Source: a virus. Taken from it: a stretch of DNA of 64,000 nt. Below, piece by piece: positions 2,910-48,161 of this stretch. The stretch is taken from the IMG/VR virus record IMGVR_UViG_3300044680_000048, positions 47,991-111,990 of that record. One strand, written 5' to 3'. Numbering within the stretch: the first letter of the stretch is position 1; each line of letters begins with the position of its first letter. Made by a program: the position numbers and the translations under genes. Below the pieces are notes generated by a model. It was not told the origin of the DNA. It was given only the letters and a program-made list of their open reading frames with translations, and made no database searches.

Positions 2910-3230
2910 ATGGATGATAAATTTAAGCTTAAAAGAACTGGAACACCCTTATCCGAAATTTGGAGCATTTACTCTGGACCCACAGGTAGAAGCGACTACC
3001 TATTAAAAGAATTAGAGGGTTTAGGATTTGATTCTGTGGAGAGGCTTTATAGTAGTATTATAGGGTCTCCCGAAGCTTTTCAAGTGTTTTTTAAAGTTCA
3101 TGGGGAAAACCTAAGTACCCTTATAGGGATACTTGAAGCGTATCTTCCCGTTTCTTTTATTAAAGAGGTTAAGGAGTATATAGCTCCTGAATATGGTATG
3201 GGTCTAGTCTTGCCGGAAGACTTTGGATAG
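2910..3230 (+). CDS. hypothetical protein (106 aa)
   Basis: ORF-track ORF at the head of a rightward 5-gene block. No motif recognised. Confidence 0.5.
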   Translation: MDDKFKLKRTGTPLSEIWSIYSGPTGRSDYLLKELEGLGFDSVERLYSSIIGSPEAFQVFFKVHGENLSTLIGILEAYLPVSFIKEVKEYIAPEYGMGLVLPEDFG

Positions 3231-8213: not shown

Positions 8214-8292
8214 AGTAGGGTAGGGGAGTCTGGTCGTCCCCGCAAGGCTCATAACCTTGAGATCGTGAGTTCAAATCTCACCCTTGCAACCA
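8214..8292 (+). tRNA. tRNA with CAU anticodon (Met; Ile2 or initiator not excluded)
   Basis: Hand-folded cloverleaf:
- Acceptor: AGTAGGG/CCTTGCA, with an A1-A72 mismatch and two G-U pairs.
- D arm: GGGG/CCCC.
- Anticodon arm: CAAGG-CTCATAA-CCTTG.
- Variable loop: AGATC.
- T arm: GTGAG-TTCAAAT-CTCAC.
- 3' end: A plus an encoded CCA. Confidence 0.75.
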
Positions 8293-15411: not shown

Positions 15412-16926
15412 CTAGATATCTTGGTATGGAAGAGTATCAATTACAGCTTCTTCCCCTACTGGTAGTTTCATAGGAGTTGCCGGAGGTACTACTTCAGAAG
15501 CAACTGAGATATTGGGAAGAACCCTTAGAGGTTTCTTACCAGCAGTTCCACCTAGAGGAGGAAGTTTAGCTATTTCAGTTCTGGCTTCATCAACAGACAT
15601 AAATCCATCCAATTTACCAATATCAACTAAGGACTTAGCCATATTCATAGTAAAGGAATTGAATCTATCCCTTGCCCGAATCTGTACGTCTTTTATTCCG
15701 GCTCTGGGAAGGATTTCAGAATTAATGAAATTATCAACTATCTTAACTACTTGATAGATAGCTTTATCAAAGATATCAGCAGCTTCATCAGCAAGAGAAG
15801 CAGCATGGTATTGCTGATTAGCATTAGTAATAATTCCTAAACGTTCATGGGGGACACCCATTACATGAGCAACCTGTTTAGCAGCTTTATCAGAAGTTTT
15901 GTGGAAGGCTCCATCTAAGTCAGCCAGATTATTCATCTGTTTAATATCACGGGCACCCGTAAGGACTACAGTATCAAATCCGGCTCTGGCTCCAGAATGG
16001 TTTGCCCGAAGTTCATTTTCCATTTGACGGGCAAGAGCCATACTATTAGCCCCGGGAATTCCCGTAGTAGACTTATTATTATCCATAAGGATAGCCATGC
16101 CAATAAGACCGCCTTTCTGGAAGACCATATTGTTATACATAGAAGCCTGAAGATCTGCTTCTAAATCAGTCAAGAGAGTAGCCAATGGGGCATTTCCTAA
16201 ATCATAATGTCTCATTGACCGGCGGTAGACACAATGCTTAAGTTGGTCCACTTCAAATATATAAGCTACAAATCCCACATAATAAATCCATTGGACAACT
16301 CTTTGTCCATCAGGACTAAATCTTGGTTCAAGGTATTGCGGAAGAAGGATTTTAAGATCCTTAAGTCCACCCAACATATTATTTCTGGGCCAAACCCAAA
16401 AGTTACCATAAATCTTAAGGTGATCTACAAGCTCTAGACGGAGTTCATCTATCCGGAATTCCTTACAAACTCTCTTAGCTTTCTCAAAATTCTTCTCATT
16501 ACCTACTAAGTAGTAACCATCAGAAGCAATTTCCCTAGAGAACTCTTCCCGGCAACACCATACAGCCCAATGGTTCTCAGCCAAGAAGGCGAAAATCCCA
16601 AAAGGGTTAGGGAATAACTGCCAGAAATTAGATCCTTGTGCCCGGAATCCATATAAATCTCCAAGCCCAAACATCCCAAAATACTTATTCTGTTGCTGTA
16701 ACCCCTTACTCTCTACATAAGTCTTAGTAAAAGAAGCAGCTTCACTCTTAAATTGATTAATTAATTTAAAGGCAGTTTGTGGATCTTTATAAGTAGAGAG
16801 GGAAGAAAGTTGAGTAACTAATCCATTAATTCTACCAATAGCCGCTTTCTCTACTGGATCTGAAATTACAAGAGCTTCGGCAGCCTTCTTTAGGGCTTTC
16901 TCTTTCTTCTTTTTCTTCTTACTCAA
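15412..16926 (-). CDS. portal protein (putative)
   Basis: 504-aa ORF downstream of TerL in the packaging and head module. Called on size and position only. Confidence 0.6.
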   Translation of the reverse strand: MSKKKKKKEKALKKAAEALVISDPVEKAAIGRINGLVTQLSSLSTYKDPQTAFKLINQFKSEAASFTKTYVESKGLQQQNKYFGMFGLGDLYGFRAQGSNFWQLFPNPFGIFAFLAENHWAVWCCREEFSREIASDGYYLVGNEKNFEKAKRVCKEFRIDELRLELVDHLKIYGNFWVWPRNNMLGGLKDLKILLPQYLEPRFSPDGQRVVQWIYYVGFVAYIFEVDQLKHCVYRRSMRHYDLGNAPLATLLTDLEADLQASMYNNMVFQKGGLIGMAILMDNNKSTTGIPGANSMALARQMENELRANHSGARAGFDTVVLTGARDIKQMNNLADLDGAFHKTSDKAAKQVAHVMGVPHERLGIITNANQQYHAASLADEAADIFDKAIYQVVKIVDNFINSEILPRAGIKDVQIRARDRFNSFTMNMAKSLVDIGKLDGFMSVDEARTEIAKLPPLGGTAGKKPLRVLPNISVASEVVPPATPMKLPVGEEAVIDTLPYQDI

Positions 16927-17658: not shown

Positions 17659-20583
17659 TTACCAGAGACGGAAGCCCAGTCCACCTAAGAACTCCTTAAA
17701 GGATTGATTTTCCTTTCGGTCTATCTCATCTTGGATTTGTTGTTGAGCGGATCTTTGATGGCGGGAAGATTCTGTTTCATGTCCTTCATTAGTTCCCATT
17801 TGAGGAGTTTTATCTTTTCTTTCCGGCACATCCTTATATATAGTTTCTATTTCACCAGAAGGTTTTTGTTCAACTGAAACTTTATCTACAATAACAAGAC
17901 CGGCGGAATCCTTCATATCCTTCAATATATTATATTGATGGTAGATGACATAGGAGAGAGCATCAGTAGGGTGAGTCATACAGTAAATTCTGTCTCTGCG
18001 GGTAGCCCGCTTAGCATTAGCATCCCCATTAGGGTCCAGTTGATCCCTGAGGGATTTATCCTTCCACTTAAGTTCTTCCAGAGATTTAATAGTATTTTCA
18101 CAATTGGGGGAGATTAGAAGAAATCCATCCTCACATGCGTGGTTCATGGTATCCGTTCTTTCTTTAATGGGCATAGTATTGGTATCTGTGACCATTTCAC
18201 AGAAGAAACCATTACCTTCAAGGATTCTAATAATCTGTGCCGGACGAGTAAGTTCACGGGAAGTCTGTCCTCCCCATCCATGAGGATCACAGAAGATGAA
18301 AACTGTCTGACCTAAATAGTCTGGCTTATATCTCCGGACAAATTCATTAGCTACGTCTACAACATTAGCTCCCCCATATGGATTATCCATAGTAGGACCA
18401 AACATTACTATTTCATCTTTAACGGTAAATTTTCCATCTTCATATTGTCCAATGATAGAGCATTGAGGTTTAAGGTTAAAATCTAAAGCCCAGAAGTAAT
18501 CCTTGGTGGGATCAATATCCGATTTTTCTTCTAAAACATTACCTAGAAGGGTGAATTTATTGTATACATAATCGTCCCGGATATCCATGTTGGTCTTACC
18601 CTGAACATAGATTTTAAACATAGTCTCATCATAGGTATCTAACATTCCCTGAAAGTAGTCTGCGGGAAGATGTTTATTATGCATTGACTCGGATTTGATT
18701 ACCCGAGTATATTGTTGATCTCCGGGACAGAAGAATCTTTCTCCTTTCCACGTCCAATAGTCCTTAGAAGACTTACAGCTGGGACACTTGTAATCTAATC
18801 CATCCTTTTCCCAAGTAACCCTTTTCTGATAGGAAAGAAGACATTTAATACAAATCTGACATTGACAAGGTTTTCCTACTGATATTTCTACGGGGTGTTC
18901 AGAAGTGTCAACTCCATCGAAGCGTTTAAATTCAAACTCTTGATTCATCCAACCGTCACGGGTTTTTTCTGGATTTGTACAAAGAATAATCTGCCTAACT
19001 TCTGGAATATTTAAACGCAGACGGGAAAGCAAAGTATAATAAGAGTCCGCATTAGGTAGAAGGTGAGGTTCTTCTACTCCAATGATTCCTGCGTTAGCTC
19101 CAACTATTTTAATGAAATTAGTTAAATTGACTAAAGTTAAATCCGAACCATTTGCAAATCTTAAATTATTCTGTTGATCCGAGAGTCTATTAAGGATTGC
19201 CGGATGATCCCATTCCTCATCAATAGTGAACATTGTCTTAAGGGTGGGTATCAGGTTTCTTTTCAATAGAGGAGCATCCATCCCGCCAATGATAGATTTA
19301 CATCCAGGATTGCTACAAAGTGCATCGACGATGCAAGCGTCCATTCCAAAACTGTTATGAACAACAGTGAAGTCATCTAGAAGAAAAAGAGAATCTCCAT
19401 CAACAGTAAATCCATAATAGTTACCCACGCCTAGTTTTTTAATAGTAACCCCAGTAACTAAAGGATCTTTCTTTAATGGGGAAAACCTAATCTTTTTTCT
19501 TTCAATTTTCGTAGGTATTCTATAAACATCTCCATAAATACAAACTTCATAACAAGTATGTACTGCTCCAGTAGAGATATTACCAGAAGCCCTTTTTTCT
19601 ACTCTGTCTCTTTTACGAAAGGTAACTCCCAGTCCTAAACTTTTTGCAAGAAACTCAATTTGTTTGGCAATTAATTCATTTTTTTGAGTTATTGTAAAAG
19701 AAGCTTTACCACCTTTATCATTTTTAGAGACTGTTCCATCACTATCTATTAAGCCAGCCAAAAACTGTAATCTATCACTTTCGGAACTTGTTAGGTAATC
19801 ATGAGGTATGTGTTTATTATTTAAAACATTAAGTTCTCTTAAGTTATTTAAAAAAGTATTACACCCTTTGGACCTTGAATTAATAGAAGTGGTTGAATAA
19901 TGTAAATTGTCGCCATGATCTGTTAGTTTTAATCCTAATTTTAAGGCATACTCTTCAAAATAATTAACTACCTCAAAATCTGGACTGGTTATTCTAGTAT
20001 TATTAGAATTTCCATTTCCAACCCAATAGGATAATATATAAGGATCTATTAATAATTCTTTAGTGTTAGGGAAATTAATTAGGCTACTTCGATAAATCCT
20101 ATGTCTTTTTTGGTCATGTTTAGATAAGGATAAATATTCCTTTACTGATAAATTTTTTATAGTTCCATTAGGTACCTTATAAAGGTCAGTAGTTTTCAAA
20201 GAAAGAATATGGGATTCATTACAAATAAAAGATGAACCCTTATTGGGAATTACCTTGTATAACATATCCTCTCCTTTAGCTAAAGAAAGGACATTTCTAG
20301 GCTTAGAGTCAGGTCCCATTACCTGATCTCCCTCTACCACATCTTGAACCATTTTAATGGTCCCATCATACATTAATATGGGGGTATCAATCCCAAAACA
20401 CTTACCTGAACTTTTTTAGCCGAAGCCACCCACAGAAATTAATGCATCACTGGTATGCCAGTGAGGGCGTTTATTTGGCGGCATCTTCGAAATAAAGTAG
20501 CGCTTTTGTAATTCATTAGGACCAGGTTCAGCAGATTTAGAACCGGTAGTCCAGAGATTCACAGGTGGAATAGGCTTCGACAT
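17659..20583 (-). CDS. terL: terminase large subunit, interrupted by an intein and carrying an in-frame TAA in the Walker A motif
   Basis: - The hand-translated N-extein runs from the ATG at 20583 and reads ...HWHTSDALISVGGFG*KSSGK. The intein then starts with Cys (20400-20398) and the C-extein starts with Ser, giving G-x4-GKS.
- The C-extein has Walker B IIGVEE, the coupling motif CTNP, and nuclease aspartates at LDFN, FCDPHG and TDAL.
- The stop codon is at 20418-20416, in the same frame as both flanks. Confidence 0.85.
19354..20400 (-). mobile_element. intein (349 aa) with LAGLIDADG homing-endonuclease domain, inserted in the TerL P-loop
   Basis: It begins CFGIDTPILMYDG and has block B NESH. 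Two LAGLIDADG motifs are present (YILSYWVGNGNS and LQFLAGLIDSDGTV). It ends FTVVHN, followed by the +1 Ser. Confidence 0.85.
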
Positions 20584-20597
20584 ATATCACCTCCTAA

Positions 20598-21167
20598 TTA
20601 TTCATCGTCATCATCAAAATACTGATGATTATCAGTAGTAATCCTCTTAGGATCTACAACTTCTGTCACTTCTAAATGATTTCCAGAACCTGCTAGGTCT
20701 GTATTACCAGAAGTCATCTGAACTTGTTTAAGTCTTTCCGATTGAACTACTATCTGTAATAGACGGAGTTCATTCTGGATGACCATATTGGTTTCTTCCC
20801 GCGCTTGTTTATTTGCATCAATAGCCGCTTTAAGGTCAACCTTATATATAGGATTACCTAAGGCATCTGCTCCACTAGGAACTCCTTCTTCCGCCATCTT
20901 AGCTATTCGTTTATAATTATCTAACCGGACTCTAGGGGAAGACATTTCATGAGATTCTAAATCCTCTCGGGCAAACTTCCTTAAAATATTTATATCAGAT
21001 TTGTATTGACGGGAGATTTGCCCTATAATAGACTCAATAGATTCTTCGGAAGAAGTTTCCCGGAAGACTCTTCGATATTTGTCCTTAACTGCATAAATAT
21101 TGTCAGTTCTGGCCATTTCAGTAATGAGCCAAACTTTCTTATAAAAGGGGAACTCTTCATCTATCAT
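20598..21167 (-). CDS. terminase small subunit (putative, by position)
   Basis: 189-aa ORF immediately upstream of terL, with an acidic C-terminus. No motif proof. Confidence 0.4.
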   Translation of the reverse strand: MIDEEFPFYKKVWLITEMARTDNIYAVKDKYRRVFRETSSEESIESIIGQISRQYKSDINILRKFAREDLESHEMSSPRVRLDNYKRIAKMAEEGVPSGADALGNPIYKVDLKAAIDANKQAREETNMVIQNELRLLQIVVQSERLKQVQMTSGNTDLAGSGNHLEVTEVVDPKRITTDNHQYFDDDDE

Positions 21168-41995: not shown

Positions 41996-42110
41996 ATGAA
42001 TATATTCTTCACTAGTGACACACACTTTTCATCATTATAACTCTATTGAATATTGTAATCGCCCATATTCTTATGAAGAAGTGGAGGAGTTAATTAGACA
42101 AAATGTTTGA
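41996..42110 (+). pseudogene. 5' stub of a metallophosphoesterase gene, frameshifted and truncated
   Basis: After an AAGGAGG SD comes MNIFFTSDTHF. After a T-run (42026-42029) the frame shifts to HHYNSIEYCNRPYSYEEVEELIRQNV*. Together these match the common MPP N-terminus FTSDTHFGHxNIIxYCNRPF...EEMNExLIxNWN. The frame ends 8 nt inside the RNA ligase ORF. Confidence 0.6.
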
Positions 42111-43326
42111 AATGACTTTAGACGAAATATTAAATACTACTCCAGCCTTAGCTCAAGTAGTAGAAATTAAAGACGCAATTAAAACACCAGGTTCGGATAG
42201 GTTAACCTCATATTCTCTCAAAGGAATGGGTTGGACAGTAATATCTTCTAATATCAACCAGACAGAAGAAAATTTTGGGGAACCAAGGTATAAACCGAGC
42301 GATAAAGTTATCTATATTGCCATTGACAGTATTCTTCCGGAAAAGCTTGAAAGGTTACTCTTCCCTGAAGGTAGTAAGATTACTCTCAGTGGAGGAAGAA
42401 TTAAGACTCTCAAACTTAGAGGGGCTTACTCTCAAGGAATGTTGATAAACCTGTCTGATTTCTCTAAGGTAGTAACCGATGGAGATTATGATCTAAAGCC
42501 AGGTAGGGATGTGACTAAGGCTTTGGGAATAACTAAATTTGAACCTCCGGTATCCTCTATTCCTAAACATATGCGTGGTCAACAGAGTAAGAAAAATCCT
42601 TTATTTAAAGAGTATACAGATGTCAGACACCTTAAATACTATACAGAATCCAATATATTTGAGTTTGGAGAGTTAGTCTATGTGACAGCTAAACTTCATG
42701 GGACTTCAGCTAGATATGCATTATTACCTACTTATTGTCCAAATCTTCCCAGACTATGTTTTGGAAATTTGAAGGAGTATGGAAGCTTAATCATAAAACA
42801 TGTTAAGAAATTCTTTGGTTTCTTACCAGAATATGAATATTGTTTTGGCTCCCGCCGTTGTCAATTACAAGATAAACCGAAAGACCATAAAACCTTTTAT
42901 GAGGATAATGTCTATAGGACTGTAGGAGAAGCTTATGGATTTAAGAAAATTCTCCAACCGGGAGAAGAACTCTTTGGGGAAATAGCAGGACCTGGAATCC
43001 AGAAAGGTTATGATTACAACTTCAAAGAACATAAATTCTTCGCTTATGATGTCATGATCAATGGTCAATTCTTAGATTCTGAGAACTTTAAGAACTGGTG
43101 TGATGCTAGAGAAGTACCAAGGGTGTCGGAACTAGGAGTAATTCCTTATGATTTAGATGAGTTGACCAAACTAGCTTCTGCTAAAACATGCCTCAACGGG
43201 CAAAAGACAAGAGAAGGAGTTGTAGTTAAAAAGGTTGTGGAACAGAATCATCCAAGTTGTGGAAGAGTTTGCTTCAAACTTATAAATCCAGAATACTTAC
43301 TTAAAGACCAGTCTGATTTCCACTAA
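42103..43326 (+). CDS. ATP-dependent RNA ligase with N-terminal tRNA-binding-type OB domain (Rnl5-like architecture)
   Basis: 407 aa.
- N-terminus: AQVVEIKDAIKTPGSDRL...KLRGAYSQGML resembles the tRNA_bind/OB module.
- Ligase domain: adenylylation motif I AKLHGTS (KxxG), TREGVVVK and the C-terminal FKLINPEY. Confidence 0.75.
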   Translation: MFEMTLDEILNTTPALAQVVEIKDAIKTPGSDRLTSYSLKGMGWTVISSNINQTEENFGEPRYKPSDKVIYIAIDSILPEKLERLLFPEGSKITLSGGRIKTLKLRGAYSQGMLINLSDFSKVVTDGDYDLKPGRDVTKALGITKFEPPVSSIPKHMRGQQSKKNPLFKEYTDVRHLKYYTESNIFEFGELVYVTAKLHGTSARYALLPTYCPNLPRLCFGNLKEYGSLIIKHVKKFFGFLPEYEYCFGSRRCQLQDKPKDHKTFYEDNVYRTVGEAYGFKKILQPGEELFGEIAGPGIQKGYDYNFKEHKFFAYDVMINGQFLDSENFKNWCDAREVPRVSELGVIPYDLDELTKLASAKTCLNGQKTREGVVVKKVVEQNHPSCGRVCFKLINPEYLLKDQSDFH

Positions 43327-47926: not shown

Positions 47927-48161
47927 AGATAAAGTATTTGATATTTGGTTTAGAGATTGGATCTACTACATAGTAGGAAATTCCCGCAAAAATGATGATA
48001 ATTCAGAAACCTTAAGGGAAAGGTTAAACTTCTATTTTAGAAGAATGGCTGAAGGGGCAAATGTCCCTAACGTAGCCTTAGGATTCGAGGATACTCATGA
48101 GTGGTGTGCATATAAAAATCCAGGTTGGAAACCATCTGCGGATGGAAAGAAGGAAAAATGA
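47916..48161 (+). CDS. hypothetical protein (81 aa)
   Basis: ORF-track ORF oriented like its neighbours. Confidence 0.45.
   Translation: MDLKDKVFDIWFRDWIYYIVGNSRKNDDNSETLRERLNFYFRRMAEGANVPNVALGFEDTHEWCAYKNPGWKPSADGKKEK

Follow-up and report, generated by a model that had tools for sequence, protein, structure and literature searches.

The large terminase gene (terL) on the minus strand of a 64,000-nucleotide (nt) stretch of viral DNA (positions 47,991 to 111,990 of IMG/VR record IMGVR_UViG_3300044680_000048, hereafter the window) carries an in-frame TAA inside the codons of its Walker A motif, five codons before an intein. An earlier note on this DNA, made from the sequence alone, had drawn attention to the stop, and our minus-strand reading confirmed both its position and the identity of the reading frame on its two sides. 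Comparison with related genes indicates that a 9-nt coding gap, UAAAAAAGU, with the TAA as its opening codon, lies in the Walker A coding sequence of what appears to be a functional large terminase, and that the stop is one member of a set of recurrent and apparently selectively maintained recoding sites in the Walker A segment of this terminase family. The note could not see that the TAA is part of an insertion, itself one of the recurrent coding gaps at this place. We favor, at a probability of about 0.5, programmed recoding at the Gly codon and stop by a ribosomal hop over the 9 nt, which would restore the sequence GGFGSGKS.

A 9-nt insertion in the Walker A codons of terL

The first 55 codons of terL end in a GGC for Gly55, and the TAA follows directly as codon 56; the frame then continues as AAA AGT TCA GGT AAG (KSSGK) to the first codon of the intein. 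The frame is open from this TAA to the final TAA of the gene, and apart from codon 56 the open reading frame (ORF) is intact over 918 codons. The gene is that of the large terminase subunit (TerL), and the interrupted motif is its P-loop. The C-extein matches PHROG family phrog_10250, terminase large subunit (2.2e-10), and tblastn matches of terL include annotated phage terminases. Spliced TerL had no match in Pfam, nor did a TerL family profile in a sequence search of the PDB, and a fold search was needed instead. An AlphaFold2 model of a homolog 59% identical to the window's protein (P0001; mean predicted local distance difference test score, 79) places a strand at residues 46-53, a loop at 54-58 and a helix at 59-73 over SDALISVG-GYGSG-KS, a predicted arrangement that corresponds to the classic strand 1, P-loop and helix 1; a Foldseek search with this model ranked TerL of D6E, Sf6, HK97, T4 and P74-26 at the top, with a best E value of 1e-17.

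We collected 26 homologs (39-59% identity) and further representatives, and compared the 34 with an uninterrupted N-terminus. The N-terminal terL domain is conserved across the family, and all 34 proteins share RPH-x4-D-x5-G-[GA]-x-[GR]-[SA]-x-K-[STCV] with the same spacing, the P-loop being in short GG-x-G-S-G-K-[ST], or -[STCV] with its variants. In every one of them, exactly 14 residues span the stretch that starts at the invariant Asp and ends with the residue following the Walker A Lys, over an identity range of 35-79%. The window, which reads GGFG-*KS-SGK, has 9 nt more than the family (GGC, then TAAAAAAGT, then TCA GGT AAG); its closest gapless relative, L015 (78% identity), has GGT AGC GGT AAG, and the insert is absent from all 34 uninterrupted homologs. 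Because the spacing among homologs is invariant, the TAA is the first codon of an insertion rather than a mutated sense codon, and restoring the family spacing therefore needs a skip of exactly 9 nt. The alignment that the earlier note had called for, to learn which residue occupies the stop position, thus finds no counterpart residue there, as the position belongs to the insertion. The note's observation of a perfect GxxxxGK[ST] with the stop at the first variable position is correct as a reading, and any three-codon insertion after the fourth P-loop residue gives the same result. The exact placement of the gap is ambiguous by one T, the two positions being equivalent.

Other assemblies encode exactly this 55-residue ORF, ending at the same TAA. 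Two of these represent distinct strains: L002 (ENA ERZ25039529) is 94% identical to the window, and L003 (ENA ERZ27263696, with a MEGAHIT-style contig name) is 95-99% identical. Both carry the identical GGC-TAAAAAAGT-TCA, as does a third locus, L001, and both lack exactly the 1047 nt of the intein, so that they are intein-less alleles. Synonymous differences flank the insert on both sides, with GGT or GGA at Gly52 and again at the Gly after the gap. Between the window and L002, the whole spliced terL differs by 83 synonymous and 7 nonsynonymous codons. Upstream of the stop the differences are 3 synonymous and 0 nonsynonymous; downstream, the proportions of synonymous (pS) and nonsynonymous (pN) differences are 0.235 and 0.006, a pN/pS of ~0.03. 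Between the window and L003, spliced terL differs at 13 synonymous codons and at no nonsynonymous one. These counts point to strong purifying selection on terL on both sides of the stop. The terL of L002 has two extra single bases, at ~3723 (TT to TTT) and ~4490 (CAG-GGA to CAGAGGA), which map to ~18814 and ~18046 in the window, and L002 differs in intergenic homopolymers as well; the extra bases are probably long-read errors, although the second creates AGA-GGA, and there may be a real shift site there.

Searches of several collections were unproductive. Megablast of the region against 50,697 phage records gave no match; among the IMG/VR viral contigs, protein patterns turned up no relative, and the DNA pattern had no match either. 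The sole match to the DNA pattern in GTDB, a contig of a Hadarchaeota metagenome-assembled genome (L027), was rejected as an unrelated chance match. A search for more strains through the 189-residue gene upstream of terL returned only the window's own cluster and a contig too short to reach the P-loop.

Disruptions at the same site in related terL genes

Two groups of seemingly aberrant sequences proved to be terL genes interrupted at the P-loop: homologs that looked truncated at the N-terminus, and N-terminal "proteins" of 54-71 residues picked up by an N-terminal domain profile. Short frame-breaking inserts, no more than 12 nt from the window's position, occur in at least five other TerL family lineages. 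In L005 and L026 (UUU GGG U AGC GGN AAA ACN), a 1-nt insert makes a UAG, and a +1 shift gives GGFG-SGKT. The same kind of 1-nt insert making UAG, again calling for a +1 shift, is found in L009-11 (seven contigs of up to 119 kb; UUC GGC U AGC GGA AAA ACG), where the T appears to have been inserted independently of that in L005 and L026. A more distant terL, present in two assemblies (L028 at 3170-3200 and L029 at 2467-2497), reads GGU GCU GCU CGG AGG AGG CAA, with GGA GGA GGC AAG ACA in the +1 frame; the extra nucleotide lies within CGG-AGG-AGG (GGAGGAGG), a Shine-Dalgarno-like run with tandem rare Arg AGG codons and no adjacent stop. In L004, the insert is 9 nt long and in frame and its last codon is Gly (GGU UAG UUA GGA UCU GGG AAG). 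This in-frame case is less certain, and the locus represents either a noncanonical start or a decaying copy. Positions 2800-2830 of L004 read GGAGGTGA, then CAG TAA ACC ATA GCC.

The longest gaps fall in a single clade in which the insert follows the Gly of GSG. A 22-nt bypass is needed in L006-8 (GGU, then UAGGGGGCAACCCCAAACUUUC, then AAG) and in L016-19 (GGU, then GGGCGAAAGCCCAUUUUAAGGU, then AAA), and one of 17 nt in L020-25 (GGC, then UAGCCUUCGGGCAAGAU, then AAA). Each insert folds into a hairpin that is capped by a tetraloop and whose 5' arm contains the take-off codon: GGUUA-GGGG-GCAA-CCCC-A-AACU in L006, GGU-GGGC-GAAA-GCCC-AUU in L017 and CUAGCC-UUCG-GGCAAG in L020. Two of the four core pairs of the stems are altered on both sides between lineages, that is, in a compensatory manner. 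The insert of L016-19 ends in a GGU that matches the take-off GGU; as both other reading routes reach stops, only a bypass works there. Landing codons match approximately in L004 (GGU and GGA). For L006 and L020 we tried two landing rules, one based on cognate triplets and one on a constant spacing to the hairpin, and no single rule fits all cases.

A Gly codon is followed directly by a stop at six of the eight disrupted loci catalogued. The disrupted lineages are scattered among intact and intein-bearing relatives in a neighbor-joining tree, which implies at least six apparently independent events with the window included, or five without the less secure L004. The disrupted genes appear to be old and selectively maintained: L005 and L026 differ with a pS of ~0.7 and a pN of ~0.07 in both frames, the clade with hairpin gaps has a pS of 0.6-0.74 and a pN of 0.11, and several disrupted lineages recur in three to seven assemblies. 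Because no start codon lies between the TAA and the Walker A Lys in the window, or at the equivalent place in any disrupted relative, a two-piece TerL made by reinitiation is ruled out. Those related inserts that break the frame can be rescued only by frameshifting or bypassing. An archaeal bulge-helix-bulge intron was also considered and rejected, as it leaves the 1-nt cases unexplained.

Proposed decoding at the Gly codon and stop

Having translated codons 1-55, a ribosome would have UAA in its A site and tRNA-Gly paired with GGC in its P site. Some ribosomes would escape termination; the peptidyl-tRNA(Gly) would uncouple and the mRNA move forward in a short bypass or "stop hop", and decoding would resume most likely at UCA-GGU-AAG to give ISVGGFG-SGK. 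Splicing of the intein would then restore the family's exact P-loop, GGFGSGKS. As speculation, the small hairpin UGGC-UUCG-GCUA might re-form in the wake of the ribosome and drive the mRNA forward over roughly the required distance. This hairpin holds the take-off codon in its 3' arm and also takes in the initial UA of the stop; the Gly-Phe-Gly codons in part dictate its sequence, and its significance is uncertain. Several routes can be written from this starting point. A hop to the first cognate triplet, GGU, gives GGFG-KS; a skip of exactly 9 nt, with landing on the noncognate AGU and resumption at UCA, gives GGFG-SGKS at family length; and either UAA readthrough or a +1 move onto AAA followed by a -1 slide on the A6 run gives GGFG-X-KSSGKS. 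Known bypass mechanisms favor the first route. We provisionally rank the 9-nt skip first because length is invariant in the 34 homologs and because in all other lineages the disruption is solved by a skip that restores the consensus. For bypass of either kind, we put the odds at even or slightly better. The suggestion in the earlier note that readthrough or bypass would be genuine recoding therefore holds for the class; neither product it described keeps the length of the family.

Several observations weigh against the 9-nt skip or limit the support for it. The AGU landing triplet is not cognate for tRNA-Gly, and at best two of its three positions pair; the first cognate triplet downstream is the GGU whose use would leave the product two residues short. 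The gap has no internal hairpin, the sole local hairpin being the one with the take-off codon in its 3' arm, and among the relatives with hairpin gaps L006 and L020 also lack a cognate landing codon. As to the supporting loci, L001 matches the window at 100% identity over 6.2 kb and was dropped because it is not independent evidence; L002 resembles an error-prone long-read assembly; and L004 comes from one contig only, with no ATG, GTG or TTG for its N-terminal ORF. The check for a second terL covers the 64 kb of the window, and one may lie elsewhere in the genome. Gap and intein occur together in the window's allele, and this intein was therefore not kept out by the gap. The decoding event is inferred from sequence in all its aspects, including its ribosomal nature, its efficiency and the exact landing site.

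The alternative that an amino acid is inserted at the UAA, by a near-cognate tRNA (Lys, Gln or Tyr) or by the +1 move from GGC-U onto AAA and the -1 slide of tRNA-Lys, is in our judgment unlikely, though it has points in its favor. The flanks share one frame, and the product GGFG-X-KSSGKS still fits GxxxxGK[ST] with Gly55 as the first Gly. The insert is nearly an A6 run, a classic slippery sequence for tRNA-Lys that a bypass model does not otherwise explain, and L009, which has the same UUC-GGC-UA context, must shift +1; because of these two features the slide gains some support. The Gly after the gap also varies synonymously, as if translated. However, none of the 34 homologs tolerates a change in length, and three more residues would lengthen the phosphate-binding loop between the modelled strand 1 and helix 1, which tells against readthrough in the form that the note gave it. 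Both release factors recognize UAA, which in bacteria is the least leaky of the three stops. In the window it is the commonest terminator, as the note had said of its ordinary use: it ends 38 of the 81 ORFs of at least 80 residues, among them terL itself and the gene just upstream, and 12 of these 38 have the context UAA-A. The window encodes no suppressor tRNA. Readthrough would also leave the 1-, 17- and 22-nt cases at the same site unexplained, and a single +1 shift in the window meets a stop 14 codons on. A hop from GGC to GGU, skipping 12 nt plus the landing codon to give ISVGGFG-K/S, we regard as quite doubtful. It obeys known bypass rules: the take-off and landing codons match and are served by one tRNA-Gly, the A site meets a stop, and the gap is short and AU-rich. 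Its product SVGGFGKS keeps Gly at positions 4 and 6 of GxxGxGK[ST]. Yet this hop, the one proposed in the note, yields a P-loop two residues shorter than in all 34 homologs, which would displace beta-strand 1 and the invariant Asp with respect to the P-loop, and L003 has at the landing position a GGA, a poorer match for a GGC-reading tRNA.

That the terminase is inactive, a pseudogene or part of a defective element whose inserts are scars of imprecise repair after cuts by a homing endonuclease, seems improbable. In its favor, the break falls in an essential motif, the inserts are concentrated no more than 12 nt from the intein homing site, the place where cuts would be expected, and L004 lacks a canonical start codon as well. 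Against this, dN/dS is ~0.03 across terL in the window's lineage and ~0.1-0.18 in the C-terminal segment of the other comparable disrupted lineages, where synonymous sites are near saturation; terL and the neighboring genes have no other disruptions, and the intein is intact; several lineages are present in three to seven assemblies; and the same T insertion making TAG recurs independently. With no second terminase among the ten largest other ORFs of the window, the note's option of an inactivated terminase is strongly disfavored. Removal of the insert from the RNA, either by cutting and rejoining of the mRNA by a nuclease and a phage RNA ligase or by realignment of the polymerase during transcription, is very improbable. 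The window does encode an RNA ligase, which offers only a remote route, and the 17- and 22-nt inserts are compact hairpins. We know of no mechanism for the precise excision of 1 or 9 nt from an mRNA in bacteria, RNA ligases are widespread in large phages for tRNA repair, and positions 20200-20700 have no Rfam match. Transcriptional slippage on the A6 run was rejected, as losing A residues leaves the TAA. Finally, an error of sequencing or assembly, or a global reassignment of TAA, has a negligible chance, with nothing to recommend it beyond the oddity of the stop itself. Error is refuted by the same GGC-TAAAAAAGT-TCA in two diverged intein-less strains. Reassignment is contradicted by the general use of TAA as a terminator; the stop in terL is the sole case in the 64 kb of a single in-frame stop between long open frames, bar one ordinary gene boundary, and the only tRNA of the window is a tRNA-Met.

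The site in the window would be a variant of translational bypassing or stop hopping, as in T4 gene 60 and the terminase of Streptomyces phage Hau3. The sequence of the gene 60 gap used for comparison matched at 100% to T4 records annotated as bypass region, and reads GGA UAG CCUUCGGGC UAUC... The two systems share a Gly take-off codon followed directly by a stop (GGC UAA in the window), a noncoding insert in a conserved motif of an essential enzyme, between ORF segments that are contiguous in homologs, and an association with a homing endonuclease. The window differs in that its gap is only 9 nt rather than 50 nt, in frame and free of an internal hairpin, in that no cognate landing codon stands at the consensus-restoring position, in that the gene is terL rather than a topoisomerase gene, and in that its selfish neighbor, unlike the free-standing mob gene beside gene 60, is an intein. 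A take-off stem-loop with the codon in its 5' arm, absent from the window, is present in L006, L017 and L020, with a UUCG or GNRA tip as in T4. In homologs of gene 60, the take-off codons are Gly or Asp and are mostly followed by UAG, the hairpin tip is CC-UUCG-GG or GNRA with an AU-rich 3' gap, the landing codons are wobble variants, and the insert is tied to the homing endonuclease against which it protects (Manning and Atkins, bioRxiv 10.1101/2022.08.31.505936); the hairpin tips and AU-rich 3' gaps of the window's relatives match this description. The 17-nt insert of L020 (3650-3690), directly after the Gly codon, shares the 12-mer TAGCCTTCGGGC (UAGCCUUCGGGC) with the T4 gene 60 cassette (HM137666.1 2797-2855), which could be convergence or a shared mobile cassette.

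For the Hau3 terminase gene, bypassing has been proposed of UUA-led inserts of 10 nt and 7 nt after a Gly codon, and mass spectrometry in E. coli detected a peptide of the bypass junction (PMC10732093). There too a short insert follows a Gly (KGWG/K) in a large-terminase gene with flanks contiguous in homologs, and the argument likewise proceeds from an invariant junction length. The slow A-site codon of Hau3 is a rare sense UUA tied to Streptomyces bldA regulation, unlike the stop of the window; the Hau3 inserts shift the frame, the terminase belongs to another family, and there is no intein. In-frame stop hopping in constructs (1987 work, cited in PMC5009743) resembles the proposed event in that a peptidyl-tRNA moves in frame from the codon before a stop to a triplet a few nt on, whereas it involves matched codons and is inefficient; the 2016 review states that no case from nature had been recognized (PMC5009743). 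The +1 cases have parallels of their own. The shifty stop of prfB (RF2) is like UUU-GGG-UAG-C in L005 and L026 and UUC-GGC-UAG-C in L009, and the window has UUC-GGC-UA in common with the latter, but its insert keeps the frame. The CGG-AGG-AGG of L028 is like +1 shifting at tandem rare AGG codons, for which there is precedent. Programmed readthrough shares with the window an in-frame stop and an open frame beyond it; unlike such sites, the window's stop is in a UAA-A context that serves for normal termination here, with no known stimulatory context, and the product would have a three-residue P-loop insertion that no homolog has. Our literature search found no paper describing coding gaps in the terL P-loop adjoining an intein.

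The packaging locus, its intein and the possible significance of the gaps

The 349-residue element in terL is by its sequence a class 1 intein with a LAGLIDADG homing endonuclease, for which splicing is predicted. It begins with Cys1, ends in His-Asn and is followed by the +1 Ser of the C-extein (C...VVHN/S, then SFGMDAC...), and its Pfam matches are Hom_end_hint (7.7e-22), Hom_end (8e-12) and LAGLIDADG_3 (1.3e-10). Two genes downstream of terL is a portal gene, the equivalent of which is recorded as PF04860 at related loci, and the locus is therefore a packaging module. A gene of 185-195 residues precedes terL at every related locus; the window's copy has no PHROG or Pfam match and, judged from its position, may encode the small terminase subunit. 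An invariant seven-Cys cluster (CxCxxCxxC ... CxxC ... C) in the ATPase domain of the TerL family looks like a zinc-ribbon insertion, which would be unusual among terminases.

Table 1. Features of the terL locus and other elements of the window
Feature	Position	Strand	Basis or remark
189-aa conserved gene directly upstream of terL	20598..21167	minus	its TAA at 20600-20598
Shine-Dalgarno AGGAGG	20590..20595	minus	read from sequence; 6 nt 5' of terL ATG
terL start codon ATG	20583-20581	minus	
terL segment 1, codons 1-55 (M1-G55), MSKPIPPVNLWTTGSKSAEPGPNELQKRYFISKMPPNKRPHWHTSDALISVGGFG	20419..20583	minus	translation; ends with beta-strand 1 and first half of Walker A (ISVGGFG)
Small hairpin UGGC-UUCG-GCUA	20417..20428	minus	RNAfold, local sequence
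terL codon 55, GGC	20421-20419	minus	proposed take-off codon
terL codon 56, TAA	20418-20416	minus	in frame
9-nt coding gap TAAAAAAGT	20410..20418	minus	starts with in-frame TAA; has A6 run
Walker A second half, TCA GGT AAG (Ser-Gly-Lys)	20401..20409	minus	UCA, proposed resume codon
GGT, alternative cognate landing codon	20406-20404	minus	GGA in strain L003
Class 1 intein, 349 aa, LAGLIDADG homing endonuclease (predicted)	19354..20400	minus	inserted after Walker A Lys; Cys codon TGT 20400-20398
terL C-extein, rest of ATPase and RNase H-like nuclease domain	17659..19353	minus	stop TAA 17661-17659
Seven-Cys cluster in ATPase domain	~18727-18867	minus	
Portal gene	15412..16926	minus	phrog_12, phrog_2662, ~1e-12
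tRNA-Met gene	8214-8292	plus	within otherwise minus-strand structural module
RNA ligase gene	42103-43326	plus	phrog_968, 2.8e-50

An intein occupies the same point, after the Walker A Lys, in eight homologs, and all inserts lie 3-12 nt upstream of this point, a stretch that a LAGLIDADG recognition site would span. Speculatively, the inserts could be "savior indels" that alter the DNA target of the homing endonuclease, a concept that, with the indel offset by low-level recoding, was set out in the 2016 review (PMC5009743); they could also, again as speculation, act as a throttle on TerL synthesis. A recoded indel would be a plausible escape because the P-loop cannot change its amino acids and TerL is needed only in catalytic amounts. 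By hand counts without formal statistics, an intein is present in 1 of ~8 gapped lineages and in roughly 18 of 41 gapless ones, an enrichment that is suggestive only and makes weak evidence for immunity. Between the window and L003 (window 19122-20790), identity is 99.3% upstream of the intein site and 94.8% downstream, a step that suggests a breakpoint of recombination or co-conversion exactly at the intein site, rather than exclusion.

Other homing elements were seen at related loci. The N-extein of P0036 (ENA ERZ1426628, a 51-kb contig) ends in IGGSQ directly before an intein closely like that of the window, with no Gly-Lys before the intein and an ORF that ends after 143 residues; the intein may sit at a different point here, or the P-loop may be one more that is disrupted. 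In L020 and L028, the terL module is flanked by free-standing genes for HNH endonucleases, and a neighboring 1344-residue gene in L028 also has a Hint/LAGLIDADG intein (L020 1969-2511; L028 5617-6216 and 1-698). The genomes of L020 and L028 are rich in homing elements.

Gene callers split such terL genes into an ORF of 55-65 residues and a truncated ATPase, with the consequence that phages with a split terL are annotated as having no intact terminase. To our knowledge, the only firmly established case of bypassing in phages is T4 gene 60 with its homologs, the Hau3 terminase being a candidate. As a tentative wider proposal, to which we give less than an even chance, the Walker A segment of terL in this uncultivated phage group is a homing site for a LAGLIDADG intein in which at least six independent gaps of 1, 9, 17 and 22 nt would be crossed by a +1 shift, a stop hop or a hairpin bypass, the gaps being savior indels that spare the protein and may throttle TerL. 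If this is true, the window with its 9-nt gap would supply the first in-frame stop hop from nature, and the inserts of 17 and 22 nt would amount to miniature gene 60 cassettes in genes other than those of topoisomerases. The family appears to hold several independent and maintained solutions at one codon position of one essential gene, namely a +1 shifty stop, a rare-codon +1 shift, a 9-nt gap led by a stop and hairpin gaps of 17 and 22 nt, and offers a natural comparative series for minimal take-off and landing signals. As the proposed recoding adjoins an intein homing site, the idea that a bypass insert confers immunity against a homing endonuclease becomes testable in a second system.

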